From Centroscyllium fabricii (taxonomy: Eukaryota), in the NCBI GenBank assembly GCA_051313645.2, contig JBNRSN020000020.1:98580001-98644000 (forward strand): DNA of 64,000 nt. Reading direction: 5' to 3'. Position 1 is the first letter of the stretch. Each line of letters starts with the position of its first letter. Shown piece by piece: positions 409 to 63,123 of this stretch. A program made the position numbers and the translations under genes. The notes under the pieces are model-generated. The model made no database searches and was not told where the DNA came from. It saw only the letters and a list, made by a program, of their open reading frames with translations.

Positions 409-1272
409 TTGTAGCAATTAGTATGCAGGTGCAGCAGGTGGTCAGGAAGGCCAACAGAATGTCGGCTTTTATTGCTGAGGGGATGGAGTATAAAAGCAGG
501 GAGGTCTTGCTGCAGTTGTGCAGGGTATTGGTGAGACCACACCTGGAGTACTGCGTGCAGTTCTGGTATCCATATTTAAGAAAGGACATACTTGCTCTCG
601 AGGCAGTGCAAAGAAGGTTCACTAGGTTAATTCTGGGGATGAGGGGCTGACATATGACGAGAGGTTGAGTAGATTGGGCCTCTACTCATTGGAGTTCAGA
701 AGAATGAGAGGCGATTTTATTGAAACATATAAGATTGTGAGAGGGCTTGATCGGGTGGATGCGGTGAGGATGTTCCCAATGGAGGGTGAAACTAGGACTA
801 GGGGGCATAATCTTAAAATAAGGGGCTGCCATTTCAAACTGAGATAAGGAGAAACTTCTTCACTCAGAGGGTGGTGGGGCTGTGGAATTTGCTGCCCCAG
901 AGAGCTGTGGAAGCTACAACATTATTAAATAAATTTAAAACCGAGAGACAGTTTCCTGGAAGTAAAGGGAATTAGGGATTACGGTGAGTGGGCAGGTAAG
1001 TGGACGTGAGGCTAGGTTCAGATCGGCCATGTGATCTCATGGACCAGTTTTCGATCGCCTAGATGGGTCGGAGAGGAATTTCCCAGATTTTTTTCTCCCA
1101 AATTGGCCACTGGGTTTTTAATCTGTTTTTTCGCCTCTCCCGGGTGATCACATGGGTTTGGGCGGGATGGAGAGTAAAAATAAAATTGAGGTTAGGATCA
1201 GATCAGCCATGATCTTGTTAAATGGCGGAGCAGGCTCGAGGGGCCGACTCCTGCTCCTATTTCTTATGTTCT
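409..1272 (+). mobile_element. CR1/HER1 LINE 3' fragment
   Basis: [13 protein letters not shown]...VQRRFTR and RRMRGD motifs; HER1-type 3' tail. Confidence 0.9.
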
Positions 1273-1357
1273 TAACTTATTTTCAGCGAACTTACAATTT
1301 TGGTGACTGGAGTGTGGAGGCTACTATTCTTTAATAATTGCTTTGTTGAATTCGCAG

Positions 1358-1412
1358 GGAATAAAACTGACCTGGAGAAGGATCGGACTGTGTCCGTGGA
1401 AGCAGCAGAGGC
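1358..1412 (+). CDS. RAB21: RAB21-type small GTPase, internal coding exon (equivalent to human exon 5)
   Basis: ttcgcag|GG...GAG GC|gtatgt; 55 nt encoding GNKTDLEKDRTVSVEAAE(A), with the G4 NKxD motif; matches RAB21 GNKIDLEKERHVSIQEAES and joins in frame to the next exon. Confidence 0.93.
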
Positions 1413-1896
1413 GTATGTATTAGGCACTGAATGGAACTGTTGGGGGAAACTGGAGCTGGATTTTACAGTCTCCTGACAGCTGCTGAGGAGTGTGTATGGG
1501 ACACAGCTTTGATATTGGAGTTGGTCTTCAGGGATTTATTGTAAACTGGTTTTTAAGTGATATTTTAATTTTAGCTTAGTGGGTAAATGCAGCACCCAGT
1601 GTGATATTGAGCCCTTCAAATCGTTACTAAGTGTGCAGTCTATTTAACGTCGAGAATCAGGACCGCAAAATCAATCCCTAGTTTGGGGATCTCGGTGTCC
1701 GTGCTGGTAGGGGACGTGAAAATTGGCCAGTTTCCAGTGTTTTCCTACTTCTAATCACTATCCAGTGACCCAGCAGGGAAGTGCATTTGAGCGGATGTTG
1801 AGTGAGGGGAGGATGACGTTTAGCTTTGCGCTGCCCCACCCTTGCAGTCAAACTGTTTTAATTCAACTTTCGAGGAAAGGATCTTAATCTCGGGAC

Positions 1897-2960
1897 ATAG
1901 AAACATAGAAGATAGGAGCAGGAGTAGGCTATTTGGCCCCTCGAGCCTGCTCTGCCATTCGATGAGATCATGGCTGATCATCCAAACTCAGTACCCCGTA
2001 CCTGCCTTCTCCCCATATCCCTTGATACCTTTCAAGAACTATATCTAACTCCTTCTTGAATATATTTAATGACTTGGCCTCAACTACATTCTGTGGTAGA
2101 GAATTCCACAGGTTCACCACTCTCTGGGTGAAGAAATTCTTCCTCATCTCTGTCCTAAATGGCTTACCTCTTATCCTTAGACTGTGCCCCCTGGTTCTGG
2201 ACTCTCTGACCATCGGCAACATTCTTCCTGCATCTAGTTTGTCCAGACCTGTCAGAATTTAATAATTTTCGATGAGATCCCCTCATTCTTCTAAACTCCA
2301 GCGAGTATAAGCCCAATCAACCCAATCTCTCCTCGTACGTCATTCCTGCCATTCCAGGTATCAGCCTTGTGAATCTTTGCTGAACTCCTTCCATGGCCAG
2401 AACATCCTTTCTCAGATAATGCGACCAAAACTGCACACAGTACTCAAGGTGTGGTCTCACTAAGGCCCTGTACAACTGCAGCAGGCCATCCTTGTTCCTG
2501 TACTCAAACCCTTTTCGCTACGAAGGCCAACATACCATTTGCCTTCTTCACTGCCTGCTGCACCTGCATGCTAACCTTCAGCGACTGGTGCACAAGAACG
2601 CACAGGTCTCGTTGCACTTCCCCGTCTCCCAATCTATTGCCATTCAGATAATAGTTTGCCTTTCTGTTTTTGACATCAGAGTGGATAACCTCACATTTAT
2701 CCACGGTATATTGCATCTGCCACGCTTCTGCCCAATCACCCAACCTGTCAAAATCATCCTGGAGTTTCTCGGTATCCTCCTCACAGCACACTCGCCCACC
2801 CAGGTTTGTGTCGTCTGCAAACTTGGAGATATTACATTTAGTTCCCATTCTATATCATTAATATATATTGTGAATAGCTGGGGTCCAAGGACTGATCCCT
2901 GCGGTACCCCACTAGTCACTGCCTGCCACTCGGGAAAGGACCTGTTAATTCCTACTCTCT
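1897..2960 (-). mobile_element. CR1/HER1 LINE RT 3' fragment
   Basis: SGVPQGSVLGPQLFTIYIND and SKFADDT motifs; 3' tail. Confidence 0.92.
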
Positions 2961-3403
2961 CTGCTAAGGATCTGTTCTGTTCTCTTCTGTTGTGTATATA
3001 TTTATGTAACGGAAATACGTGTAGTGCAATCAGCTGCTTCACAAGGACATTTATTGCTAAATCCTGCTCGGAGCACTCTGTATGGACAGCCATGCGCCAT
3101 TTCCCCCTCGCTTGGTGAGTGAAGTGATTGTACTCTGTTTCTGTGGAGAGGACATTGTGTTCTAATTGCGGGAATGGTTTGTCCTGGTTAGAAATTTGTT
3201 TTGAAGAAGGTTGGAAGTTTTCAAGTCTTTAAAACCACACAGCAGCTCAATTAGCCTTTGAAGTGCATCATTATAGCCAGCTCTTTTTTTTAACCTGTTT
3301 TATTTTGTAAACCTGCTTTTAAATCGGTGGGAAATGCGCTTTGCGCTGAGCTATCAAACCACACTCTTCATAAGTCCTGAATCATCTTGTTGCTCTTTTA
3401 ATG

Positions 3404-4052
3404 AAGAGGTTCTCAAACTGGGGTCCGCAGACCCCCAGGTGGGGGGGCCCCATAGAGACTTTCCAGGGGGTCTGCGAAATAATGGGTAAGTGCGGCCGCC
3501 ACATCTGCACAGAGTGGGCTGGCTGTCTCGCCTCGGAGGGGAAATGCCTGAAGGTTACAAACCCATTTAGAATCAATTCCCAAGTTGTTGTTTACAAACA
3601 AAAATCGCAAGTCCTCTTCCCTGGATCAAATGCCAAGGAAGGAAACCACAGAGAGGCTCCGCTTAACCCACGCGAAGAACCCTCTTCACAGCCAATCGCC
3701 GATCTCAGACTGCACGCTATGACGCACAGCAGTGCGTGGCCAAAATCATGCCACCTCTATACAGTTGGTACGGAGTTTCCTTAGCATTGCTACACCAACA
3801 TTTTCAGGAGATATGGCGGTAGAGTTTAAGTTGCCGCTGCTGGGGAGAAACATCACACGAAGGGTAGACAGACTCTGCAGTGAGAAGCAGGCACACCCAT
3901 CTGATTGATATGTTTTCTTAAAAGCATTATTGAAATGCTCTCTTTACACGCAGCACTTTCATATTATGAGTATTCTAATTTAGATGAGGGGTCCGTGATT
4001 ACTAATCTATTTGAAAAGGGGTCCTTCAACCAAAAATGTTTGCGAACCGCTG
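3404..4052. mobile_element. hAT (Charlie-like) non-autonomous element
   Basis: Termini AGAGGTTCTCAAACT...TTTGCGAACCGCTG resemble CAGTGGTTCTCAAAC hAT TIRs; subterminal GGGGTCC motifs. Confidence 0.6.
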
Positions 4053-4120
4053 ACGGAATGTACCTCCTGTCTTTAAACAAATGCTGTCAATTAAACCGAC
4101 GCGAGTCTCTTTGGAACATT

Positions 4121-4978
4121 GGGCCAGAAATTCGGGTGCCTGGGAGTAGCTGCACCCGCACGGAGGGGTGCCAATATGCCCCGTGCAATCATCGCACGGG
4201 GCATGCCCATGGATTGGAGCCTTCCGATGCTGAGGGAGAAGAGGCCTCCGCATGGAACGCACAAAAGAATTGCACCCAAAAATCCCGATGTTTTTGGGTG
4301 TGATTCTGTGCGTGAATCTGTGGGCAACTGGGCCTGAGGCTGCACGGGAAAAAAGGAGTCGTAACCTGTGCGTTGGTGAGAGCAGTGCCTTCCTAAACAC
4401 AGGTAATGGACTTTTTAACCTTTAATTTTAAGTTTTCTAAGTTTTTTGGAGTAATGTGGCCAGATTGCTATCATTAAATTTTACTGTTAAAGTTTTAAAA
4501 AAAACTTAAAAGTCCAAATTTCAATTGCTATACCTATTCCAAATCGCTTATTTTTAAATTTAAAGTTCAGAAATTTTTAACTCTTAATTAAAAAAACGAA
4601 GAGAAAAAATCTCTAAGACTCACCGACATTGAAAAGCTGCTCTGGCCGCGGTGCTCACTGCCGAGTTTGTGGGTGCAGCAGTGGGCATGGTCCCAATAAC
4701 GGCCTCCCATCCCTGCTCTCTCAGAAGTCCGACTGTGAAGCAGGGGGGCGTTTTTTATTTAAATTAGGGATCTGTGGGCGGGGCATCACTGCTACGCACG
4801 CACGACGGCAGCGCATATACTGCGCTCCTAGCGTGGCTGAACTGCCACGCAGCGTAGGAACGGGGCGGAGCCAACCGGAAGGTCTGGACGTAAATATTGT
4901 GAGATTCTGGTGCGGGTGCTAAAGGTGTCCGCTGGGTCCTTGCACCCGCACAAACCGGCACACTGGAATTTCTGGCCC
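4121..4978. mobile_element. PIF/Harbinger-like non-autonomous element
   Basis: TIR GGGCCAGAAATTC...GAATTTCTGGCCC with 3-bp TSD ATT; GC-rich ends and AT-rich middle. Confidence 0.82.
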
Positions 4979-5293
4979 ATTGTGTTGCGGTGACTTTTTC
5001 TTTAAAGAGCCACTTGTGTTTTATTTCCCTGCGCCTGGCTGAGAGGACCCGCTTCCGGGGTGCTGCCAATAGAAAAATAGATGGCTACAAGAGTGGCAGA
5101 AGGGGCATTCTGCCACCTCCACATGATTGCCTGGCTGAGGATATTAATCTTGTGGGTGCGAATCTACTGGACCGCTCTGACGCGCTGTGCCCCCCCCCCC
5201 CCAGGCCCCTGGATTAACGTTTTTGTTTAGTCTTTGACTGATGTTAAAATCTCTTGGCTCATGAAAATTCTTTAAATAATTCCTCCCCAACAG

Positions 5294-5382
5294 GTATGCA
5301 GAGTCTGTAGCAGCGAAGCATTTCCACACTTCGGCCAAAGTGAACAAAGGCATTGAGGAACTCTTTCTTGATGTCTGTAAAA
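5294..5382 (+). CDS. RAB21: RAB21-type small GTPase, penultimate coding exon
   Basis: ccccaacag|G TAT...AAA A|gtgagt; 89 nt encoding YAESVAAKHFHTSAKVNKGIEELFLDVCK, with the G5 TSAK motif. Confidence 0.95.
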
Positions 5383-5554
5383 GTGAGTGAGCATTCTCCA
5401 ACTCTGACTAGCTCTCAGCTGTGATGTGCTTCATCCAATTGTGCCTGTTCAACCTCTCCCACCTCCTTTTATTTTTGAAAGATGCTCCTTAAAACCTGCC
5501 TCTTTGACCAAGCTTTTGGTCTCACGTCCTAATCTCTCCTGATGTGGCTGGTGT

Positions 5555-6158
5555 CATAGAGTCATTGAGTTATACAGCACAGAAAGAGGCCCATCGTGTC
5601 CGCACCGGCCATCAAGCCCTGTCTATTCTAATCCCATTTTCCAGCACTTGGTCCGTAGCCTTGTATGCTATGGCATTTCAAGTGCTCATCTAAATGCTTC
5701 TTGAATGTTGAGGGTTCCTGCCTCTACCACCCTTTCAGGCAGTGAGTTCCAGATTCCAACCACCCTCTAGGTGGAAAAAGTTCTTCCTCAAATCCCCTCT
5801 AAACCTCCTGCCCCTTGCCTTGAAACTATGCCCCTGGGTTATTGACCCCTCTACTAAGGGGAAAAAGTTCCTTTCTATTTACCCTATCTATGCCCCTCAT
5901 AATTTTGTACACCTCAATCAGGTCCCCCCTCAGCTATCTCTGCTCCAAGGAAAACAACCCCAGCCTGTCCAGTCTTTCTTCATAGCTGAAATGCTCCAGC
6001 CCAGGTAACATCCTGGTGAATCTCCTCTGCACCCTCTCCAAAGCTATCACATCCTTCCTGTAGTGTGGCGACCAGAACTGCACACAGTATTCCAGCTGTG
6101 GCCTTACCAGCATTTTGTACAGCTCCATCATAAGCTCCCTGCTCTTATATTCTATGCT
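5555..6158 (-). mobile_element. CR1 LINE 3' fragment
   Basis: [33 protein letters not shown]. Confidence 0.9.
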
Positions 6159-6550
6159 ACATATTCAACCTTTTTAATAATTAAAAATACAGAAACTTAT
6201 TTGTGGAGGTTGGGGGATGGATGGGAAGTTTGTGTTAGTGTCCAGCATTGGAGCTGTGGTGTCTTTCAGAACAACGTTGCAGCTGTCCCAAAGACGCAGG
6301 AAACGTCCAGTGCAGCTATTTTAGGATAAGACGTTAAACTGAGGCCCCGTCTGCCCCCCCCCCCCCTCGAGTGGAAGCAAAAGATCCCACGGCACTATAT
6401 GAAGAGAAGCAAGGGACTTCTCCCTGATATCCTGGCCAATATTTGGCCCACAACCAACACCTAACGACAGATGGTCTGGTCATGTCATTATCACATTGCT
6501 GTTTGTGGGAGCTTGCTGTGTTAAAATTAGCTGCTGCATTTCCTGCAACA

Positions 6551-7126
6551 TGATGTGGAGGTGCCGGTGTTGGACTGGGGTGGACAAATGCAAGAAGTCA
6601 CACAACACCAGATTATAGGACAACAGTTTTATTTTAAATCACAAGCTTTCAGAGCTTTTGCCCCTTCGTCAGGCGAAAGAGAGACTGACTTAAAGAAGGC
6701 ACATATGGGACGATGGGAGAAATCCGATATCTCCCACATCTCACCTTAGCGGAGATAGACACACAAAGGCGTATTAACATATTTTAAGAGTTTCATTTAA
6801 ACATAGCATATATAGAGAGATAACTCTCTCTTGATTGCTTGGTGTCCCTCAGCTGAGGTGTGATGTGAAACAGCTGGAGAGACCACATTGTCATCTCTAT
6901 ATATGCTATGTTTAAATGAAACTCTTAAAATATGTTAATACGCCTTTGTGTGTCTATCTCTGCTAAGGTGAGATGTGGGAGATATCGGATTTCTCCCATC
7001 GTCCCATATGTGCGTTCTTTAAGTCAGCTTCTCTTTCACCTGACAAAGGGGCAGAAGATCTGAAAGCTTGTGATTTAAAATAAAACTGTTGGACTATAAT
7101 CTGGTGTTGTGTGACTTCTTGCATTT
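6551..7126. mobile_element. Penelope-like element remnant: inverted pseudo-LTR pair with hammerhead motifs
   Basis: 233-bp inverted arms at 6586-6818 and 6894-7126; extra tail at 6551-6585; TSD TTTCCTGCAACA at 6539-6550 and 7126-7137; CTGACGA..GAAAGCTT core on - in the left arm. Confidence 0.85.
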
Positions 7127-10400: not shown

Positions 10401-12250
10401 AATGGGAGTACTCCAGTGTCACAGATGGATTATGTAGGAACATTGCTCTCCTTTACAAAGAGGTTTGCTCCAGAATGGATAGTTGATTAAGAAACTAAGA
10501 CACTTGTGATTAATTTGTTATTAAAATATTGTTATGCAGACACTAGTTCTTCAACATTCTTTTAAGAACGACTTGAACTTCTATAGTGCCTTTCACGACT
10601 TCGACGTCCCAAAGTGCTTTACAGCCAAAGTTGTAATGTAGGAAACGCGGCAGGCAATTTGCGCACACCAAGCTCCCACAGACAGCAATGTGATAATTAA
10701 CAGAAAATGCTTTGGACGTGCTATGAAAGATCAGCTTAGTCCCCTGCAACTTAAGTTCTCTACAAAAATTACTGCAATGTCATGGGGTAGCATATACTAA
10801 TACAGAACAGGGAGGGTGCTCTCTGAAAATTCCTACATGTGAGCTGCTGGCTTACTATGAAGTAATTTTGTAAAATAGCCTGATGGTGATCCTCCTCCCC
10901 TCCCAATGTTTTTAAGCGGTTCTATAGGAATCCCTATCCATCCTTGGTAAACAGAGCTTTAATTTACCACACTGGTCCAAATGTGCTTGGTTCAAATATC
11001 AAACTCCACTGCAAAGTCGGTTATCTGCTGCCTTCAATTTTGGAAGTTTAAATGCCAATGAAGGAATATGGTGTGTTCTGACCAGCAAATATACTGTGAG
11101 GATCAAAACTTGTTTTACTCGTAGTTTCTGTGGCTGATTCCATCTATATTTAGGATTCCATTCCAATTAGCAATTGGGGGGGGGGGGGGGGGGGGGATTT
11201 TCCTGGAGGTGCAGGAACCTGGTGGGGATTGGTCAGAGCGGGTTCCTGACCTGCCCGGCCAAGGGCCTGGGAAGCCCACACTATTTTCGCCTACTCCATT
11301 AAATCCCCGTGTGCAGGGTGCCTCTGGTAAGTGCAGCAGTCCAGTCGCCAATTCCGGGTTGCAAACGGCATTCCAGCAGGCAGATGCGGCAATGGTTTGT
11401 CTACAGTTCCCATGGCAACACTCCACTGTGACATCACAGTGACAGGTGGGCGGGCGGGATCGGAATCTTTGACAGCTAGGTGCTGGCTGTCAGTGAATCT
11501 GGGAAGGTAAGTTTTTGGCCACAGCTGGTCTTAACCCAATGGAGTGACTTACTCCTCCAGGGTGCTGAAGGCCTGGGAAGCATTTTGCTGTAGGCCCTTC
11601 AACACCTTGAAGATTCGGGGCGGGGGGGACAGGGCGGCGGAAAATGCTAAAGCGGCGGGGTTCCTGGGGGGTGGTGGGGGTCGCGACCCACCAGTTCTGC
11701 TATTTTGCCGTCCTACCCGCCGAAAACCCTGCCTCACGGGGAGATGAAAATTTTGGCCTTTATGTTCAGTACTAGCTTTCTCTAGACAAAAGCTCATTAC
11801 TTAAACTGTTATAACAAATTAAATTATTGGGGGTTCCAGTTGATTTGAATGCTTTTTTTTTAAAAAAAAAAGAAAAATAACTTTACTGGAATCGGGACTG
11901 AATCCTATTGTGACTATAATTAATGAATTCTCGGGTGGGGGGGGGGGGGGGGAGGGAGGGAAAGAGAGCAAACCCCTAAACTGCTTCCCCCCATAGTTTT
12001 AATGACTAAATTAAAGTGCTTTATAGGATTAGGTGAAGAGCAAGCTTTTGTATATCCTGAATAATGATTAATACGATAGCAACTTGTGTGAGTTTTTATT
12101 TAACAACTATTCTATGGAGATTTTTCTTTCACTGTTTTCAATTAACTAAAGTATTAAAAAAATCTTGTATAGTGATGCACATCACGTGCAAAATACAGAA
12201 AAAGGGCAATTGGTGACGAGAAATAAACAAGCACCAGCTGTTTTATATAG
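7462..12250 (+). other. RAB21: Probable long 3'UTR of RAB21
   Basis: Repeat-poor, U-rich unique sequence after the stop; AATAAA at 7779-7784 and 12222-12227; the end point is inferred. Confidence 0.55.
11176..11758 (+). mobile_element. Poly-G-ended Harbinger-like MITE inside the putative RAB21 3'UTR
   Basis: G-run plus ATTTTCC start; ends GAAAATTTTGGCC; shares the CCATGG..ACACTCCACTGTGACATCACAGT core with other copies. Confidence 0.72.
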
Positions 12251-20303: not shown

Positions 20304-20774
20304 CAGGTTGAGCACCGTTAATCTGGCACGGTCGGGACCAGGACCGTGCCGAATTTGTGAAAACTCCGAATGATTGAAGCTTCGGCGAGCGCATGCGCAG
20401 ACCATTCAAAATGGCCGCCGCGAAAGGCCGGCGGCCATTTTGAATGGTCTGCGCATGCGCTCATCGGCCGGGGAGGCCTGGGACAATACCAAGGTCGACT
20501 TTTTAAATTTAGAGAAAGTAATTCTGTTCCATTGTAAATGCATCTTGCCTCAGTTTCAAAGTTGAAAGCTAACAAACTATGCGGCCAGACGTCACACCCT
20601 TTGTGGGTTGGGAGGAAACTTTAGTTTTAACATTGAAGCTTCGGTCTGCGCATGTGCTCATCATTCACCAAGTGCGGTGGCCATATTGCGCATGCGCCGA
20701 CCACTTGGGGAAATCTGTGCCGGACGTCGGAAGCTGCCGGTTTTTCGGGTGCCGGATTCACGGTGCCCAACCTG
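20304..20774. mobile_element. Tigger/pogo-like MITE with NRF1/YY1 motif arrays and AT-rich cargo (~20485-20630)
   Basis: TA|CAGGTTGAGCACCG...CGGTGCCCAACCTG|TA; TA target-site duplication (TSD) and Tigger4/MER46-like TIR start. Confidence 0.85.
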
Positions 20775-22433: not shown

Positions 22434-23163
22434 GAGGGGGACTTTGCCAGAAGGGCGGGAACTGGTCTGGGCGCCCAAACAGCTGGGAAGGCCACGCAAT
22501 TTTAATTTGATTGGGTTGTTAAATCCACGTCGGCGGCAGCGGGTGGTAATTAAGTCAATCGAGTCGGGCTCCAGCGGGGCTGCGAGGAGTTTGATTGACA
22601 GTTCCAGCACTGGTTGTTGACACTTCCCATGGAAGCACTCCACTGTGACATCACAGTCGAGTGGAACCAATGGGAAAGGTCAAGTGCTGGTGACTGACAG
22701 GTGGGCGGGCGGGCTCAGAATCCTTGACAGCTCGGCAGCGGCTGTGAGCAAATGTGCAGAGCTGAGGTTTCTCAGTTTTTGCTCACAGCTGGTGCAGACA
22801 GAACGGAGTTACTTACTCCTCTAAGGTGCTGGAGGCATGCCAAGCATTTGGCAGCATGTCCTTTACACCTTGAAGGAGAAAGTGGTAACCAGCGCTGTGC
22901 TCCCGCTGGGGTTTAAGGTGACGGGGTTAGGGCGGGAAACAGGTCAAAATGGCTGAGGGCCCTTAAAATGGCATTAAAGATGCCAATTAAGGGCCCTTAA
23001 CGAGGTGACAACCCATCCCCGCCGGCCGGAAGGTTTTGGGGTGGGGAATCTGGGCGGGCGAAAATGAAAAAGCGGCGGGGAGGGGTCGCAACCCGTCGGT
23101 TCCGCTATTTTGCCAGCCGAGCTGCCGAAAACCCTGCCTCACGGGGACATGAGATTCCCCCCC
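22434..23163 (+). mobile_element. Poly-G-ended Harbinger-like MITE
   Basis: Collinear with the 47951, 55682 and 62286 copies; internal dyad AGGGCCCTTAA...TTAAGGGCCCT; C-run end. Confidence 0.78.
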
Positions 23164-24246
23164 AGTGTATGCGAGTTTATAACATGCATCTGATACAAGA
23201 GACCAGGTTAATGAAGTCAAAGTCAGGCAATGTTGGAAATATACAGCAGATCTGTCAGCACTGAAAATAAATTGTGGGTTATTGCTTTGACTAAAGACCC
23301 TTTGTCAGGACTCAAAGATATTTTGGTGTTTTCAATGCTCCTTTGACCACTGCGGCTGCCACTTGATGTGATCCATCCTCTCTATCAGATCAAGTTTCAA
23401 GTTAACTTTATTTGTTACATACATCATTATACATGTACAAAGTGTAGTGAGATGCGGTTGTAAGCATTCTCTTGCTCTCTCTCCAGCACCATTTGCATCT
23501 ATCTGCATCAGATCCACCCTGGTTTTCAGTTTCACATCGACATTTGGCACTTTTAATAAATTATTTTTCTCTTTCAGAAAGACACTCAATGGGTGCAGCC
23601 CAATCTCCTGCCCCCTCTTGCCTTTCACTGTCTTCTGATCCCATTTATCCTTCGAGCCCCACCGTTGTTTGGATTCCCATCTGCCAGGTTTTCACCATTC
23701 TTTGACCTTGCCCTTTATCACTCCAAATGATTTGTTCTCAGCTTCACTGCCTTACAGCCTCAGCAGGTTACAAGCTTGACAATGATGCCCCAGCTCGGAT
23801 TCTGCTGTCCTCATTCCTGTGCTTTCTCCCCTCACGCCTCCACCGCTTCTCCTTCCACCAGAGTCCTTTTGGACCTCTCGCGTGCCCTCTTTTCATCGAG
23901 AGCTGCCAAAATCAGTTGTTCTGCACTCCCTTTACCCATTCTAATCTACCTCTCTCTGACTCTTCTCGCTCTCTTGGATCCCTAACCTAGTTTAAAAGTC
24001 TGCTGGGTGTGTTGCTATTTTGTGGCACTATTACAATTCAGCCTTTTACATAAGAACATAAGAAATAGGAGCAGGAGTAGGCCAATCGGCCATTCAATAA
24101 GATCATGGCTGATCTGATCCTACCCTCAAATCTCCTTACACTCTCCATCGCACCCTAGCCCATGTGATCTCCTGGGAGAGGCAAAAAACCAGGTAATTAA
24201 AAGTTATCCTGCTGAAAAGGATTGATGATAGGTGCCGTCAGAGACT

Positions 24247-25009: not shown

Positions 25010-26125
25010 CAATAGCAAAATACTGCGGATGCTGGAAATCCACAACAACAACAGAAAACGCCGGAGAAGCTCAGCAGGCCAGGCAGCATCGGTGGAGAGA
25101 GAAACAGAGTTAACGTTTCAGGTCGAAGACCTTCCGTCAGAACTGGAAAAAAACAGGAGAGGGGACAGACTTTAAAGCAAGTAGGAGCTGGGGAAATGGG
25201 GAGGGGAGGTCAGCGACAGGATAGCAAGCAGGAGAGATTAAGGGACATTGAGAGATATTCAAGAAACACAGGATGAAGTGTGAACGGCTCTGGCAAAGAG
25301 GAGAAAAAAGAAAAAAGCCCAGACGAAAGTGTGGATTAAAAAAAAAGAGAATATATACAGGTGTATATATATATATATATATATGTGATGGGGCCGATGT
25401 TATGATCTGAAATTGTTGAAATCTATGTTTAGTCCAGAGAGCTGTAGAGTGTCTAAGCGAAAGATGAGGTCCCTCACCACTTTTTCCGATACATTGATGA
25501 ATGTATCAGTGCCGTCTCCTGCTCTCACCCTGAACTAAACAATTTCATTCACTTTGCTTCCAATTTCCACCCTTCCCTCACCTTCACATGGTCCACATCC
25601 GACTCTTCCCTTCCCTTCCTTGACTTCTCCGTCTCCATCTCTGAGGATAGGTTGTTGACTAACATTCACTACAAGCCCACTGACTCCCACGGCTACCTGG
25701 ACTACACTTCCTCCCACCCCGCTTCCTGTAAGGACTCTATTCCATTCTCCCAGTTTCTCCATCTCCGCCGCATCTGCTCCGACGATGCCACCTTCCACAC
25801 CAGTGCTTCCGACATGTCCTCCTTTTTCCCCAACCGGGGATTCCCCTCTACTGTGGTTGACACGGCCCTCGACCGCGTCCGCTCTAGCTCCTGCACTTCT
25901 GCCCTCACCCCTGCCCCTCCCTCCCGGAACCATGATAGAGTTCCCCTTGTCCTCACCCATCACCCCCACCAGTCTCCACATTCAACAGATCATCCTCTGT
26001 CATTTCCACCACCTCCAGCGTGATCCCACCACCAAATGCACCTCCCCTTTCAGCATTCTGCAGGGACCGCTCCCTCCGCGACACCCTAGTCCACTCCTCT
26101 ACCACCCTCAGCACCCCTTCCCCTG
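25010..26125. mobile_element. Penelope-like retroelement: inverted pLTR (-, mutated hammerhead at 25107-25144) plus RT fragment (+)
   Basis: FRYIDE at ~25483; HYKPTDSHGYLDYTSSHPASCKDSIPFSQFLHLRRICSDD is typical of the PLE RT C-terminal region. Confidence 0.85.
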
Positions 26126-33539: not shown

Positions 33540-33626
33540 AACATAAAATGCATTTCCCTAGAATATCCCTTAGTTACTTTTCCAGCGCAGGCAGTAGCCC
33601 AAATTTCACAGTAAGCGATGTAAGTA

Positions 33627-34430
33627 TTCAATTCAAGTTTTATTGTCATTGCAGAGTACGAGTACAATACAACGAAACGAAGACTTGCCGCTCCTGAGAA
33701 TAGTGCAAATAAGTTACATACAATAAAGTACATTTCAGGTGTGCAGATACTGGAGTTTTTTGTTACAGTTCAGGAGACTGACAGCCCTGGGGAAGAAGCT
33801 GTTCTTGAATCTGGTCGTGCGGGTGAGGATTGATCTGTAGCGTCTCCCGGAGGGCAGGGGGGGGGGGCGAACAGACTGTGGCTGGGGTGTGTGGGGTCTT
33901 TAATAATGTTCAGAGACCTCCGTAGGCAACATTTGAGGTAGGTGCGTTTGATTGACGGTAGCTGGGTACCGGTGATTCGTTGGGCAGTTTTGACTACCCG
34001 CTGCAGGGCCGAGATGGTGCCGTTTCCATAACAGACTGTGATGCAGCTTGTCAGTATGCTTTCGATTGTGCAGCGGTAGAAGTTGGTGAGGATGCCGGAT
34101 GTCAGCTTGGCTTTCTTCAGCTTCCTTAGGAAGTACAGGCGCTGTTGGGCCTTCTTAATCAGAGAGAAGGTGTTTAGTGACCAGGAGAGGTCTTCCGAGA
34201 TGTGGACCCCGAGGAACTTCAATTCAATTCAAGTTTTATTGTCATTGCAGAGTACTAGTACAATACAACGAGACGAAGAATACAACTTGAAGCTGGACAC
34301 CCTTTCCACCTCAGCCCCTTGGATGAAGATGGGGGTGTGTCTTCTGCTTTTAGTCTTCTGGAAGTCCACTATGATCTCCTTGGTTTCCAGTGCCAGGTTG
34401 TTGTCGGCACACCATCCCACAAGGCGCTTC
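33627..34430 (-). mobile_element. Rex1/Babar LINE 3' fragment with a nested short Rex1 tail
   Basis: KFLGVHISEDLSWS...KKAQQRLYFLRKL; (TTGAA)n tail at ~33627. Confidence 0.92.
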
Positions 34431-34590: not shown

Positions 34591-34619
34591 CTGACGAAGG
34601 AGCAGTGCTCCGAAAGCTT
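34591..34619 (+). ncRNA. Minimal type I hammerhead ribozyme core in a Penelope pLTR (pLTR ~34480-34680)
   Basis: CUGACGA-A-GGAGC-AGU-GCUCC-GAAA-GC-UU: perfect helix II and palindromic AGCU helix III; helix I is degenerate. Confidence 0.68.
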
Positions 34620-37454: not shown

Positions 37455-38372
37455 ACAAGGCTGTGTGCTGAGCCCCCTCCTCTACTCCCTCTTCACTCAC
37501 GACTGTGCGGCTGTCCATGGCTCCAGCACGATCATCAAGTTTGCGGACGACACCACAGTGGTTGGCCAGATCACCAACAACGACGAGTCAGCCTACAGGG
37601 ATGAGATCCAGCGCCTTGTGGGATGGTGTGCCGACAACAACCTGGCACTGAACACCAAGAAAACTAAGCAGATCATAGTGGACTTCCGGAGGACTGGAAG
37701 CAGAAGACACACCCCCATCTTCATCCAAGGGGCTGAGGTGGAAAGGGTGTCCAGCTTCAAGTTCCTCGGGGTCCACATCTCGGAAGATCTCTCCTGGTCA
37801 CTAAACACCTCCTCTCTGGTTAAGAAGGCCCAACAGCGCCTGTACTTGCTAAGGAAGCTGAAGAAAGCCAGGCTGTCATCCGGCATCCTCTCCAACTTCT
37901 ACCGCTGCACAATCAAAAGCATACTGACAAGCTGCATCACAGTCTGGTATGGAAATTGCACCATCTCGGACCGGAAGACCCTGCAGTGGGTAGTCAAAAC
38001 TGCCCAATGAATCACCGGTACCCGGCTACCGTCAATGGAAAGCATCTACCTCAAACACTGCTTACGGAGGTCTCTGAACATTATTAAAGACCCCACACAC
38101 CCCAGCCACAGTCTGTTCGGCCCCTGCCCTCCGGGAGACGCTACAGATCAATTCGCACCCGCACGTCTAGATTTAAGAACAGCTTCTTCCCCAGGGCTGT
38201 CAGCCTCCTGAACTCTAAAAATAAACTCCGGTACCTGCACGCCTGATAATGTACTTTACTGTATGCAATTTGCATGTAATTTATTTGCACTACTCTCGGG
38301 AGCGTCGAGTCTTCGTCTCGTTGTATTGTAGTAGTACTCTGCAATGACAATAAAACTTGAATTGAATTGAAA
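37455..38372 (+). mobile_element. Rex1/Babar LINE RT 3' fragment
   Basis: QGCVLSPLLYSLFTHDC...IIKFADDTTVVG...KKAQQRLY; CAATGACAATAAA plus (TTGAA)n tail. Confidence 0.93.
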
Positions 38373-43083: not shown

Positions 43084-43725
43084 GGGGGGATGGGGGATTT
43101 TTGCAAAGGTGTAGAAAGCTGGCGGGTTTTGGGCGTGTCAGTATTCTGACACAAATGTTTGAGGGCCTGGGAATCCCACGCAATTTTGGCTTAATTGGCC
43201 AATTAATTGCCTGCGTGTGGGAAGCCCCTGCCAATACACAATTTCCAGTCGGAAAGCAGCGGCCTGCAGATGACAGCCGGAGGTTTGATTGGCAGTTCTA
43301 GGAACTGTGTGTTGTCAGTTTCTCTGGAAACAGTCCATTGTGACATCACAATGGAGTGCAACCAATCTCAAAGCCCAAGTGGGTTGAGTCACAGGTCTAA
43401 GGACACGCTGCAAAGCTTTCACAGTGAGGGGCCGTCTCTCTATGAAGCAGTGCAGCATCTGTCAAGGTAAGTCTTTTCAGTGTTTTCTCCACAGCTGGTC
43501 TTCACCCAAGGGAGTCACTTACACCTCCAGGGTGTTGAAAGCCTGGAAGGCATTCTGCTGTAGGTCCTTCAATACCTTGAAGGTGAAAGTGACCAAGCCG
43601 ACTGAGAGCCCGCTAGCTTTCACCGGCAGGGTTTCAGGATGGCGGGGAATGGGTGGGAAGGGCTTAAAAATCGTGAGGGGCCCTTAAAATGGGATTACCC
43701 ATGTCAATTAAGGGCCCCTAATTAC
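43084..43725 (+). mobile_element. Older, truncated copy of the poly-G-ended Harbinger-like MITE
   Basis: Diverged core CATTGTGACATCACAAT and the GGGCCCTTAA dyad. Confidence 0.62.
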
Positions 43726-47950: not shown

Positions 47951-48673
47951 GGGGGGGGGGGATTTTGCTGGAAGTGCGGGAACCTGGCGGGGATTGGTCG
48001 GGGTGGGTTCCAGTCCCGCCTGGCCAAAGACCTGGGAACCCCACACAATTTCCATTGAATTGAGTTATTAAATCCCCGTCTGCGGCAGCCGGTGGTAGTT
48101 GACTCAATCGAGTCGGGGCTGCAGCGGGGATCGAGCAGTTTGATTGACAGTTCCCATGGAAACACTCCACTGTGACATCACAGTTGAGTGGAACCAATGG
48201 GAAAGGTCAAGTGCTGGTGACTGACAGGTGGGCGGGCGGGCTCCGAATCGATGACAACTCGGCACCGGCTGTGAGGAAATGTGCAAAGCTGAGATTTCTG
48301 TTTTTGCCCACAGCTGGTGCACCCACCACGGAGTGACTTACTCCTCTAAGGTGCTGGAGGCATGCCAAGCATTTTGCAGCATGTCCTTCACGACCTTGAA
48401 GGAGAAAATAATGACCAGCGCTGTGCTCCCGCTGGGTTTCAGCCAGCGGGGTTTAGGGTGGGAAACAGCTGAAAATTGCTAAGGGCCCTTAAAATGGCAT
48501 TACAGATGCCAATTAAGGGCCCTTAAGGACCTTAACAATCATCCCCGCCGGCGGGAAAGATTCGGGGCGAGGAAAGTGACCGTCCGAAAATGCAAAACCA
48601 GCGGGGTTCCGGAGAGCTGGGGCAGGACCCAAAAATGTCCTATTTTCACCTCCCAGCCGCCCAAAATCCCCCC
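47951..48673 (+). mobile_element. Poly-G-ended Harbinger-like MITE inserted in a DeuSINE
   Basis: GGGGGGATTTTG...CAAAATCCCCCC termini with 3-bp TSD AAA; removing it restores the SINE sequence CATAAAAGATCCC. Confidence 0.82.
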
Positions 48674-53879: not shown

Positions 53880-55530
53880 GTCGTGATTATCAAAGGCTAG
53901 CCAGCAAGTTTCTCAGGGCAGTGCTCTTAACCGAACAATCTTCAGCTCCTTCATCAATGAGCTTTCCTCCATTCTAAGGTCAGAAGTGGGGCTGTTTACT
54001 GACTATTTCACAATATTCAGCTCAATTCAAAACTCCCTCAAGATAATGAAGCAGCCCACGCCATCTTACAGCAGGAGCTGGACAGCATCCAGGCTTGGGC
54101 TGACAAATGGCAGCTATCATTAGTGCCATACAAGTGCCAGGCAATTACCATCTCCAACAAATCCAACCAGCTCCCTTTGACCTTCAATAGCATCACTGAT
54201 CCCCACTTTCAACAGCTTGGGGATCCTCACTGACCAGAACCCTAACTGGGTCAGCCACATCAACACCGTGGCAATATCAGCAGAGTAGTGGCTGTGTACT
54301 CGGATGAGTGGATCACCTCCTGATTCCTCACAATCTCTCTATCATCTTAAGGCTTAAGTCAGGACTGTGTACACCATAACACCACCGGGGACGCCCCGTG
54401 AACTGCAAAACACCCCCACTGACACATGGGGCAGGATTTTCCTGACGGTGCGGGAAATGGGTGGGATCCCCACTGATCACTCTATCTTCCCACTTTCTGA
54501 AGGGTGTGGAATCCCCACGCAATTTTGGCTTAATTGGCCAATTAATTCCCCCGAGTGTGGGAAGATCCGAGCAATTGAGGGATTTTGCCTCGAAACTGGG
54601 CGTGCTTTTTGACCCGTGTCAGCAGCAGAGCCCATGATTAGCAGCAGTACTGATAGGCTTGGTGTTTCTCTTTCCGTGGTTTCAGGGCATTATGATGTCC
54701 CAGGAGTTAAGAAGAATGAGAGGGGATCTCATTGAAACTTATAAAATTCTGACAGGTCTGGACAGACTAGATGCAGGAAGGATGTTCCCGATGGTCGGGG
54801 AGTCCAGAACCAGGGGTCACAGTCTAAGGATAAGGGGTAAGCCATTTAGGACTGAGATGAGGAGGAATTTCTTCACCCAGAGAGTGGTGAACCTGTGGAA
54901 TTCTCTACCACAGAATGTAGTTGAGGCCAATTCATTAAATATATTCAAGAAGGAGTTGGATATATTTCTTAAGGCTAAAGGGATCAAGGGATATGGGGAG
55001 AGGGCAGGGACAGGGTGCTGGGTTTGGATGATCAGCCATGATCGCATTGAATGGCGGAGCAGGCTCGAGGGGCCGAATGGCCGACTCCTGCTCCTATCTT
55101 CTATGTTTCTATGACTGTGATGGAATTATCACTGGACATGTGCAGCTGCAAAAATACGCAAGACACCATCCAGGACAGAATGGCCTGTTTGATCTGCACC
55201 CCTGCCACTGGACACAATATCCACCACCAGCACACTGCAGTGTGCACTATCTACAGGATGCACTCCAGCAACTCACCAAATTTAATTTGACAGCACCACT
55301 GATCCCTGTAACCTCTACCTCTGAGAAGGATAAGAGCAGAAATATCATGGTATACAATCACTTCCAAGATCCCCGCCAAGTCACACACCATTCTGATTTG
55401 GATCAACATCACCTCTCCCTCATTGTGGTTGGGCATAAATCCTGGAATTCCCTACCTAACACCATCATTGAAGCACCATGACTACAAAGAAGGTAACAGT
55501 TCAAGGCAGCAGCTTTCTCAGCCAATAAAT
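53880..55530 (+). mobile_element. Old CR1-clade LINE RT fragment interrupted by a Harbinger-like piece (~54428-54700) and a HER1 tail (54703-55112)
   Basis: SQGSALxxTIFSSFINELS RT-like motif at ~53911; CR1 ORF 54659-55114. Confidence 0.7.
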
Positions 55531-55681
55531 ATAGCTTTCCCCCTGTCACCCACATCGCAAGAACAATAAAATAACGTAGCCACATTCCCTGTACCATCAT
55601 CTTTGCCACAAGTCTCATTTTTCCCCTTCTTTTCACCAACCCTCAAAAGCTTCTGACGAAGGGCCATCGACCTGAAACATT

Positions 55682-57045
55682 GGGGGGGGACTTTACCGGA
55701 AGGGCGGGAACCTGGCGGGGATTGGTCGGGACGGCTTCCTGTCCCGCCCGCCCAAACAGCTGGGAAGCCCACGCAATTTTAATTTAATTGGGTTGTTAAA
55801 TCCCCGCCGGCGGCAGCGGGTGGTAATTAACTCAATCCAGTCGGGCTCCAGCGGGGCTGCGAGGAGTTTGATTGACAGTTCCAGCACTGGTTGTTGACAG
55901 TTCCCATGGAAACACTCCACTGTGACATCACAGTCGAGTGGAACCAATGGGACAGGTCAAGGGCTGGTGACTGACAGGTGGGCGGGCGGGCTCCGAATCC
56001 CTGACAGCTCATACCGGCTGTGAACAAATGTGCAAAGCTGAGTGTTCTCAGTTTCTGCTCACAGCTGGTGCAGACAGCACAGAGTATAACTTACTCCTCT
56101 AAGGTGCTGGAGGCATGCCAAGCATTTGGCAGCATGTCCTTCACATCCTGAAGGAGAAAGTTATAACCAGCGCGGGGTTAGGGCAGGAAACAGCTCAAAA
56201 TGGCTGAGGGCCCTTAAAATGGCATTAAACATGCCAATTAAGGGCCCTTAACGAGGTGACAACCCATCCCCACCGGCGGGAAAGTTTCGGGGTGGGGAAA
56301 AATGTAAAAGCGGCGGGGAGGGGGCGTCGCGACGCACTGGTTGCGCTATTTTGCCGGCCGAGCCACCGAAACCCGCCGGGTGTCCAGCTTCAAGTTCCTC
56401 GGGGTCCACATCTCGGAAGACCTCTCCTGGTCACTAAACACCTCCTCTCTGATAAAGAAGGCCCAACAGCGCCTGTATTTCCTAAGGAAGCTGAAAAAGG
56501 CCAAGCTGACATCCGGCATCCTCACCAACTTCTACCGCTGCACAATCGAAAGCATACTGACAAGCTGCATCACAGTCTGGTATGGAAACTGCACCATCTC
56601 AGACCGGATGGCCCTGCAGCGGGTATTGAAAACTGCCCAACGAATCACCGGCACCCAGCTACCATCAATTGAATGCACCTACCTCAAACGTTGCCTACGG
56701 AGGTCTCAGAACATTATTAAAGACCCCACACACCCCAGCCATAGTCTGTTCGCCCTCCTGCCTTCCGGGAGACGCTACAGATCAATTCGCACCCGCACGG
56801 CCAGATTCAAGAACAGCTTCTTCCCCAGGGTTGTAAGTCTTCTGAACTCTAACAAAAAACTCCAGTATCTGCACACCTGAAATGTACTTTATTGTATGCA
56901 ATTGTATGTAACCTATTTGCACTACTCTCGGGAGCGACGAGTCTTCGTTTCGTTGTATTGTATTAGTACACTGCAATGGCAATAAAATTGAATTGAATTG
57001 AATTCAATTGAAAACCCCGCCTCACGGGACATGAAAATCCCCCCC
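55682..57045 (+). mobile_element. Poly-G-ended Harbinger-like MITE, inserted in a Penelope hammerhead motif and itself interrupted by Rex1
   Basis: TSD ATT at 55679-55681 and 57046-57048; the flanks rejoin as CTGACGAAGGGCCATCGACCTGAAACATTAACTCAG. Confidence 0.82.
56378..57010 (+). mobile_element. Rex1/Babar LINE 3' fragment nested in a Harbinger-like MITE
   Basis: Uninterrupted frame VSSFKFLGVHISEDL...SFFPRVVSLLN; (TTGAA)n tail. Confidence 0.93.
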
Positions 57046-57399
57046 ATTAACTCAGTTTCTTTCTCCACAGATGCTGCCTGGCCTGCTGAATGTTTCCAGC
57101 ATTTTCTGTTTTTACCTCAAAAACTCTGATGTTCCAAAGGCTCTGCTTATGGAGCTCAATCCATACCTGTCTCAGGTAGCAGCCACATGATAAATAGAAA
57201 AAAACAGAGTAACAAGAAGATCCCTAGGTTATAAAGGATGTTTTCACTTTGATGGTCAAGTAATTAAAGATGCTATCATCCATCATCTTGATTACATTAA
57301 GCTTCAATGCAACAATGATGCTATCCAAAATAACAACAGGAAACGCTGGAAAAACTCAGCAGGCCAGGCAGCATCGGTGGAGAGAGAAACAGAGTTAAC

Positions 57400-57627
57400 A
57401 GCCAAAATTTTCATGCCGCAGCTGTCTGACAACCTCCTAGAATCCCGCTTGAGCTCCGTAATTGCCGACTCGACTGAGGCAATTACCGGGGCACCCCGCA
57501 CGCGGGGATTTAATTGAACACTTAAAGGAAAATAGCGTCGGCTTCCCAGGCCCTTGGGCGGGCGGGACAGGAACCCGCCCCGACCAATCACTGCCAGGTT
57601 CCCGCACCTGCAGGAAAATCCCCCCCC
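57400..57627 (-). mobile_element. Internally deleted Harbinger-like MITE inserted in a Penelope hammerhead motif
   Basis: TSD AAC at 57397-57399 and 57628-57630; ends match the 11176 subfamily. Confidence 0.8.
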
Positions 57628-57660
57628 AACGTTTCAGGTCGATAACCTTTCGTCAGAACT
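57628..57660 (-). ncRNA. Penelope-type minimal hammerhead ribozyme core, split from its helix I partner by a MITE
   Basis: AGUU-CUGACGA-A-AGGUU-AUC-GACCU-GAAA-CG-UU; the partner strand AACUC is displaced to 57396-57392. Confidence 0.7.
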
Positions 57661-57989
57661 GGGAAAAAAAAGCAGGAAATGGAAAGCAAGTTTGGGGGCC
57701 GGGAAAAGGAAATGATCCTATCCATCCTAATCTGCAATTTACAGTGGATCACCATTTGCTTAACAATTATGGGAACAAAGAGCCTTATGCTCCAGCATTT
57801 AAGTCAGGTGCTAGAATACCAACAGTATTAATGAGAATCTCATAAGTACAAGATCATTAAAAAAACTAAAAAAAGTAGAAAATAGTCTGACCGTTTGACA
57901 CTAAATTCTGCCAAATGGTCAATCCTGTGAAGTACTGGCATTTCGCAAGTTTTTGTTTGAACACTAAATTCTGCTGCCAAATGGTCAAC

Positions 57990-62285: not shown

Positions 62286-63123
62286 GGGGGGGGGGGGGGG
62301 GATTTTTCCGGAAGGGCGGGAACCTGGCGGGGATTGGTCTGGGCGGCTTCCGGTCCCACCTGCCCAAACAGCTGGGAAGCCCACACAATTTTAGTTTAAT
62401 GAGGTTGTTAAATCCCCGTCGGCGGCAGCGGGAGGTAATTAGGTCAATCGAGTCGGGCTGCAGCGGGGCTGCGAGCACTTTGATTGACAGTTCCAGCACT
62501 GGTTGTTGTCAGTTCCCATGGAAACATTCCACTGTGACATCACAGTGGAGTGGAGCCAATGGGAAAGGCCAAGTGCTGGTGACTGACAGGTGGGCGGGCG
62601 GGCTCAGAATCCCTCACAGCTCGCAGCGGCTGTGAGGACATGGAGAGAACTGAGATTGCTCAGTTTATGTTCACAGCTGATGCTGAAGCCAGAACGGAGT
62701 TACTTACTCCTATAAGGTGCTGGAGGCATGTCAAGCATTTGGCAGCATGTCCTTCACACCTTAAAAGGAGAAAGTAATAAATTCACAAAGTCACACAACA
62801 TCAGGTTATAGTCCAAAAGTAATAAGCAGCGCTGTGCTCCCGCTGGGTATCACCCAGCGGGGTTTAAGGTGGCGGGGTTAGGGCGGCAAACACGGCAAAA
62901 TGGCTGAGGGCCCTTAAAATGGCATTAAAGATGCCAATTAAGGGCCCTTAACGAGGTGACAACCCATCCCCACCGGTCGGCGGCGGGAAGGTTTCGGGGC
63001 GGGGAATCTGGGCGAGCGAAAATGAGAAAGCGGCGGGGAGGGGCGGGACCCGCCAGTTGCACTATTTTGCCGGCCGGGCCGCCCAGAACCCCGCGTCATG
63101 GGGACATGAAACCCCTCCCCCCC
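62286..63123 (+). mobile_element. Poly-G-ended Harbinger-like MITE
   Basis: G-run start, C-run end and 3-bp TSD TTC. Confidence 0.82.

Follow-up and report, generated by a model that had tools for sequence, protein, structure and literature searches.

PIF/Harbinger transposons and Tourist-like MITEs are described as duplicating 3 bp within an extended palindromic target, a preference that reaches past the duplication and spans 9 bp in plant and 15 bp in vertebrate genomes (the part of PMC2836001 consulted). In the descriptions drawn on here, maize PIF, rice mPing and zebrafish Harbinger3_DR have short terminal inverted repeats, and the parent elements carry two genes, Myb/SANT and DDE_Tnp_4. 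The minimal hammerheads of Penelope elements, in the consulted portions of Cervera and De la Pena (2014, PMC4209133), sit in the pLTR, with a C-terminal GIY-YIG frame upstream; they have a short helix I, an unpaired base ahead of helix II and a palindrome replacing helix III, and occur mostly as single motifs in truncated copies, with inverted neighbours. For Neptune-type Penelope-like elements, the marks given in the part of PMC8557442 consulted are a C-terminal GIY-YIG domain with extra cysteines (CCHH) and a linker. In each of these respects the elements described below resemble those systems; the relation between them is of another kind, with the first sort of element landing again and again at one base of the second.

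The window (the whole 64,000-nt stretch of Centroscyllium fabricii DNA that was analysed) has a repeat content that we take to be like that of cartilaginous fish genomes. Two of its repeats form an inverted pair (82%), and both read AGTT-CTGACGA-stem-GAAAC-RTT-AACTC; each is split behind RTT by an insert, with RTT repeated on the far side (Table 1). Motif 1 was already mutated in the 5' strand of helix I and in the palindrome. An unsplit copy lies near 25,110-25,150. A different hammerhead-like motif (CTGACGAAGG...CCGAAAGCTT), probably of another Penelope family, occurs unsplit at 34591 (+) and 6672 (-).

Table 1. Features assigned at the two split motifs.
Feature	Position	Strand
pLTR hammerhead motif 1, 5' part (core CTGACGA 55653-59, stem II, GAAAC 55674-78)	55645..55678	+
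Target-site duplication ATT, left copy; CpG-decayed form of GTT	55679..55681	+
Harbinger MITE, poly-G/poly-C-ended subfamily, ~730 bp minus nested piece	55682..57045	+
LINE 3' fragment nested in insert 1, (GAATT)n tail	56371..57010	+
Target-site duplication ATT, right copy	57046..57048	+
pLTR 1, 3' part (AACTC... tail)	57049..57115	+
pLTR 2, 3' part	57325..57396	-
Target-site duplication GTT	57397..57399	-
Harbinger MITE, GGCC-ended subfamily, internally deleted (228 bp of ~800)	57400..57627	-
Target-site duplication GTT	57628..57630	-
pLTR hammerhead motif 2, 5' part (AGTT-CTGACGA-stem II-GAAAC), consensus-like	57631..57680	-

Insert 1 consists of a MITE and a nested 640-bp LINE 3' piece; the latter has an open C-terminal frame of 169 codons with a PF09004 match, and two more copies of it (90-91%) lie in the window at 33626-34222 and 37745-38371. 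Insert 2 is a deletion derivative, in which 213 nt from one end run straight into the final 16 nt of the opposite end; those first 213 nt match genomic copies ~800 bp long at 93-96%. The two inserts are 77% identical across their first 162 nt and differ at their far ends; they represent two subfamilies of a single family. The window contains six more copies or fragments of this family (11190-11758, 22434-23164, 43090-43720, 47955-48575, 54429-54600 and 62295-63100), none at a hammerhead and several with expanded terminal G runs. Long hairpin-like inverted repeats, probably other MITEs, were seen at window 20384-20465 and at L349:7093-7301.

The repeat that was hit is supported as the pLTR of a Penelope-like element, with putative Neptune-type endonuclease marks. 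Longer genomic copies have up to 1.1 kb of common upstream sequence, a broken GIY-YIG endonuclease frame in which two cysteines precede YIG and a CX-CxxC linker is present; when two upstream copies were scanned with PF01541, one matched at E 2.4e-4 (21.7 bits, just below the 22.6 cut-off) and the other gave no match. The pLTR motif fits a predicted minimal type I hammerhead, with a CUGANGA...GAAA core, helices I and II, an NUH triplet and palindromic 15.2-16.2. Among 34 distinct uninterrupted motifs, chosen by a pattern that itself required the core, the AGTT/AACT pairing of helix I holds in 27-33 of 34 at each position; the same motifs have GGTC-loop-GACC with a variable loop, and CGTT in 25. 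Hammerhead numbering places the scissile bond behind the second U, which here is the predicted cleavage position. An Rfam scan of the window (E<=1) gave three weak unrelated matches and no hammerhead; the split minimal motif lies below Rfam's reach. One pLTR subtype (L221, L223, L225, L230 and L232) has the core TTGATAA, with U3-A8 replacing C3-G8, and stem changes AGTC/GACT and GGGTC/GACCC; covariation of the TTGATAA type is described for schistosome motifs in the portions of PMC4209133 consulted.

The target is abundant. The 7.2-Gb genome contains 45,865 exact copies of the 17-mer core, and sampling of forty evenly spaced 10-kb stretches (ten rows, one of them a duplicate, hence 9 motifs in 400 kb) gives ~160,000 motifs genome-wide, with a range of 74,000-308,000. 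Most pLTR copies are short truncated ends.

The inserts are assigned to a PIF/Harbinger MITE family on their 3-bp duplications and on ends that they have in common with two-gene elements. Thirty transposase loci were fetched, and three of them match the MITE ends; in the other 27 the ends were unmatched inside the 3.4 kb fetched per locus. One of the three, L349, holds a 5.6-kb element (1042-6627) in which both MITE ends flank a Myb/SANT-like gene (L349:1159-1590; PF13873, E 3.6e-9, over the cut-off) and a convergent transposase gene; the transposase of the element bearing the MITE ends matches PF13359 at E 1e-40. L351 likewise has both MITE ends around its genes, L350-L352 are relatives, and the MITEs match the end segments of L349 and L351 at 68-94%. 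The flanks of these parents are less tidy: the right end of L349 is degraded, L351 is bordered by TAT/TCT, and the left end of L350 was not found. Among MITE copies with both ends located, matching 3-bp triplets were present in 35 of 61 and 36 of 65, a few of which may be chance matches, as the search tolerated slippage in G runs. We infer that the proteins of the two-gene elements moved the MITEs. The DDE_Tnp_4 family as a whole gave 72,583 first-look candidates genome-wide, in several families and with many frames of >400 codons; the Harbinger expansion in this 7.2-Gb genome (G+C 51% in the sample) is very large.

The two insertions in the window are instances of a genome-wide pattern. A search for GACCTGAAAC-NNN-GGGGGGGA (core, three bases, MITE end) gave 1,843 genome matches, as against 1 for the reversed control, a junction count far beyond chance. 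With offsets of 0-14 permitted there were 2,608 junctions; in the 100 matches listed, read by eye, 90 were at offset 0, the predicted cleavage position, 7 at +6 and 3 elsewhere. The ~2,350 filled cores, a lower bound since other end types were uncounted, compare with 45,865 intact ones, so that 4-5% are split. Viewed from the side of the inserts, in samples that are the first rows in contig order and chiefly from contig C1, the poly-G subfamily has 13 of 88 copies at the site (15%, 8-24%), with 4 others that are ambiguous or lie at adjoining positions of the pLTR, and 3 of the 12 remaining rows listed also read as the hammerhead site; the GGCC subfamily has 3 of 90 at the site and 2 more at +8, 2 of its 29 best matches at the site, and, by exact count, 28 right junctions (24 with RTT) among ~1,245 ends. 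Uniform insertion would place 0.002% of copies there; the observed excess is 1,500- to 6,600-fold. The subfamilies differ (13/88 versus 3/90, p 0.009), as do their exact right junctions (~6% for poly-G, ~2% for GGCC). Most copies are outside pLTRs altogether, 71 of 88 and 85 of 90 in the two samples, and 85-97% of sampled copies are away from the hammerhead site. Adjoining or inverted hammerheads with two inserts, or with both offset 0 and +6 occupied, were seen at L032, L033, L040 and L079/L080, giving nested or tandem MITEs. Recurrent landing sites also exist in other repeats (L103:3898-4777, L164, L145, L180, C1:121729761 and C1:282168092), showing that hotspots are a general outcome of the target preference; these other repeats are probably CR1-type LINEs.

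Such numbers might in principle be reached without any targeting, if a few pLTR-MITE composites had been multiplied by Penelope retrotransposition or by duplication. Penelope does copy its own 3' end, and three loci (L032, L033 and L040) hold two filled motifs side by side. The inserts themselves tell against it. A tree was built from 75 aligned MITEs, of which 23 are at the site, 48 lie elsewhere and 4 are at neighbouring positions; it omitted seven hammerhead inserts of other groups or of odd length, as well as copies that lacked both ends or fell outside 650-900 bp. The 23 are scattered across the tree and form no clade. They lie in both orientations (10 and 13 of 23), and their identity to one another (mean 86%, maximum 93%) is similar to that of other pairs. 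For 10 of the 23 the nearest neighbour was also a hammerhead insert (6.8 expected, p 0.17), and for 5 it was one of the same orientation (3.3 expected, p 0.26); the 22 loci with both ends include three or more groups of MITE, as well as several subtypes of pLTR. Amplification of composites is thus largely refuted by the tree and the nearest-neighbour test, and we regard it as very improbable; both orientations and the scatter through the tree make the insertions independent events.

These results bear on several points in the earlier note. It had placed both window insertions within GAAAC-NTT-AACTC, at the boundaries given in Table 1, and these are correct, with the ATT and GTT duplications confirmed. 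It took the two for separate events and not one duplication; their divergence and different far ends agree, as does the genome-wide scatter. Its reading of the host repeat as a Penelope pLTR with a minimal hammerhead is borne out by the upstream GIY-YIG frame and the pattern of core and helices, and its Harbinger assignment by the duplications and by the ends shared with elements encoding Myb/SANT and DDE_Tnp_4 proteins. The genome-wide check that it proposed has given strong enrichment at one base. It had also noted that the poly-G end abuts NTT: the same end does so in both window inserts, but a fixed orientation is ruled out genome-wide, where both are found.

Why this base? We think it probable that these thousands of independent MITE insertions gather at one base of the pLTR because the DNA there matches the general Harbinger target. 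The transposase would choose its target by direct read-out of ~13 bp of DNA, with two halves whose effects multiply; GAAAC-RTT-AACTC would fit both halves of a putative palindromic target, approximately GASWY-WWW-RWSTC; and ~160,000 motif copies with two good halves could then draw 4-15% of all insertions. The overlap with the predicted cleavage position would be a coincidence, arising from the way in which the GAAAC core and the AACT of stem I flank the NUH triplet at the spacing that the transposase requires.

The target was derived from insertions outside pLTRs. For the GGCC subfamily (7 pLTR rows and exact duplicates removed), 104 insertions with 138 half-sites give, outward from the duplication, G 84, W 111, G 62, T 111 and C 64 of 138; the palindrome runs outward G/A, T/A, G/T/C, T, C/G around an A/T-rich triplet. 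When this matrix was passed over 30 intact pLTRs, the cleavage position ranked 1st of 150 offsets, followed by +8 and +6; its weight is 130-178 times the average, within the top 0.09-0.15% of genome positions. The matrix of the poly-G subfamily, from which 17 pLTR and 2 microsatellite rows were removed and whose boundaries are blurred by G runs, likewise puts the cleavage position 1st.

Natural variants of the motif bear on the same question. In the GACCC type, with rows classed by eye, 15 of the 100 matches listed have inserts at +8, with GTCGA still in place after GAAAC; 3 of 100 have GTC or ATC duplicated at the cleavage site, a lower bound since some GTC duplications may have turned to GTT after insertion; and 72 of 100 are still at offset 0, mostly with GTT or ATT. 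Filled motifs have ATT and GTT at 37:54, intact ones at 14:86 (odds ratio 4.2, p 4e-5), an excess of ATT that the general preference for A/T-rich duplications predicts. At 16 of the 18 loci that could be scored, out of 22 with both ends, the two copies of the duplication agree in their first letter (p 8e-4), so the ATT mutation mostly predates insertion; part of the excess may reflect an age gap between filled and intact copies. A dimer helix III would need the ACGT palindrome, according to the consulted part of PMC4209133, and ATT copies are without it. Less in keeping with the general target, GTT/AAC duplications make up 3 of 104 and 0 of 57 elsewhere, yet they are the majority at the hammerhead site. 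A second repeat, with a GAGTT-AAC half and a poor other half, is similar in abundance to the hammerhead motif (4 copies in 400 kb) and accounts for 0 of 100 junctions listed.

These observations also bear on two readings that give the ribozyme a part. Ribozyme RNA, or its cleavage, might mark the site through an RNA-DNA hybrid or a nick and so guide the transposase. The only point that speaks for this is that the duplicated triplet happens to be the predicted NUH triplet; DNA outside pLTRs predicts the position, insertion in the GTC variant mostly shifts to +8, on the downstream side, and ATT copies, in which the palindrome is lost, are inserted more often, not less. We give a mark of this kind very little weight. 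Still harder to credit is random insertion followed by selection retaining those inserts that silence Penelope ribozymes: nothing specific favours it, selection acting on repeats that are mostly truncated could not produce a 1,500- to 6,600-fold excess at one base, and the motif would be disabled just as well by inserts at other places in the core.

How large an excess the general target should produce is a separate matter. Matrices with independent positions predict 0.08-0.47% of insertions at the site, as against 3-15% seen, and so fail as a full quantitative account; for the poly-G subfamily the shortfall is 30- to 200-fold. Their predicted contrast between offset 0 and +6 is ~3-9 (13 seen), and that between 0 and +8 is ~3-7, with no clear +8 case among the matches listed. 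Counts of ends by what they adjoin give a closer result: 2,285 adjoin GAAACRTT (6-8 of 100 matches listed outside the motif), 1,627 adjoin GAGTTAAY (2-3 of 100) and 5,028 adjoin AAY (57 of 100). Weights for the half-sites, from non-pLTR ends against background counts, are 45-59 and 14-20; multiplied together, they give predicted odds of 0.29-0.57 for an AAY end to lie in the motif, as against 0.76 seen. With corrections for triplet type and flank decay, which are assumptions, the residual has medians of 0.9-4.7 (95% range 0.2 to 35); the model draws on 9 motifs from 400 kb and on the above 6-8 and 2-3 rows, which were classed by eye. Half-site preference covers most of the several-thousand-fold excess; it may or may not explain a further few-fold excess or the three- to four-fold difference between subfamilies.

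A different reading, which we hold to be unlikely, supposes that the poly-G subfamily has gone some way towards specialising on the Penelope pLTR beyond the general consensus, by longer recognition, a tethering protein or local chromatin, with the pLTR serving as a harmless multicopy landing site and one copy in six on the scissile base. The share of this subfamily at a single base of one repeat (15-16%), the three- to four-fold difference between subfamilies, the further 4 of 88 at the +6 and +8 neighbours together and the 30- to 200-fold matrix shortfall are what one might expect of it; moreover, 92-94 of 100 listed inserts adjoining GAAACRTT are in the motif, as against 4 of 31 empty GAAACRTT. 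A single consensus common to both subfamilies leaves their difference (13/88 versus 3/90) unexplained. Set against this, information past position 5 never exceeds 0.16 bit in either matrix, 71 of 88 copies are outside pLTRs, the residual from the half-site product is compatible with 1, and the hammerhead-inserted MITEs form no clade.

An insert at this base parts helix I from the core, so that cleavage of that copy would end and its predicted ribozyme would be destroyed. About 95% of cores are intact, however, and most targets are short truncated copies, many already decayed; the hotspot should not be read as showing that Penelope is controlled by this means. The earlier note had suggested that the transposon may use the ribozyme as a landing signal and disable it. 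The first part is not supported in that form, and the ribozyme itself is probably not the signal: a general DNA target predicts the base, in the GTC variant the hotspot moves off the cleavage position, motifs decayed to ATT are favoured and 85-97% of sampled copies are elsewhere. Nor is there support for the disabling being of consequence, with ~5% of motifs split, mostly in truncated copies.

The hotspot is real and apparently unreported: the literature search, whose coverage lay outside subscription papers, supplements and Repbase entries, returned no DNA transposon hotspot in Penelope hammerheads. It is likely a by-product of the known Harbinger target preference. On a genome scale, it illustrates how an RNA motif conserved in one mobile element can turn into the largest single sink for another, and it yields a Harbinger target consensus. 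Motif variants, two subfamilies and thousands of events together form a natural experiment, in which one can ask if half-site effects simply multiply in target choice. Should the residual excess prove real, the family would be a rarity, a DNA transposon on its way to a multicopy target, and candidate parents are at hand. Split motifs also escape ribozyme scans.

Comparison with the known systems brings out what is particular here. PIF/Harbinger duplications are TTA or TAA, whereas the duplication here is broadly A/T-rich (TAA in 16 of 104), within a consensus of ~13 bp that has a strong T at position 4. The MITEs here are 750-920 bp long, as against the 100-500 bp given for MITEs in the consulted part of PMC2836001, and 4-15% of copies are at one base of another mobile element. 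For the Penelope motifs, the portions of PMC4209133 consulted describe no DNA transposon in the motif. Pokey (piggyBac-type, in rRNA genes) and Dada (in snRNA and tRNA genes) likewise occupy fixed positions in multicopy RNA sequences, as far as the consulted part of PMC3706591 describes them; Pokey, like the Harbinger MITE family here, inserts elsewhere too, whereas Dada is strictly target-specific, makes 6-7 bp duplications and uses another transposase. Strict specificity of the Dada type fails here, with 71 of 88 and 85 of 90 sampled copies outside pLTRs. The multicopy target of this family is the RNA motif of another transposon, and most of its copies are elsewhere.
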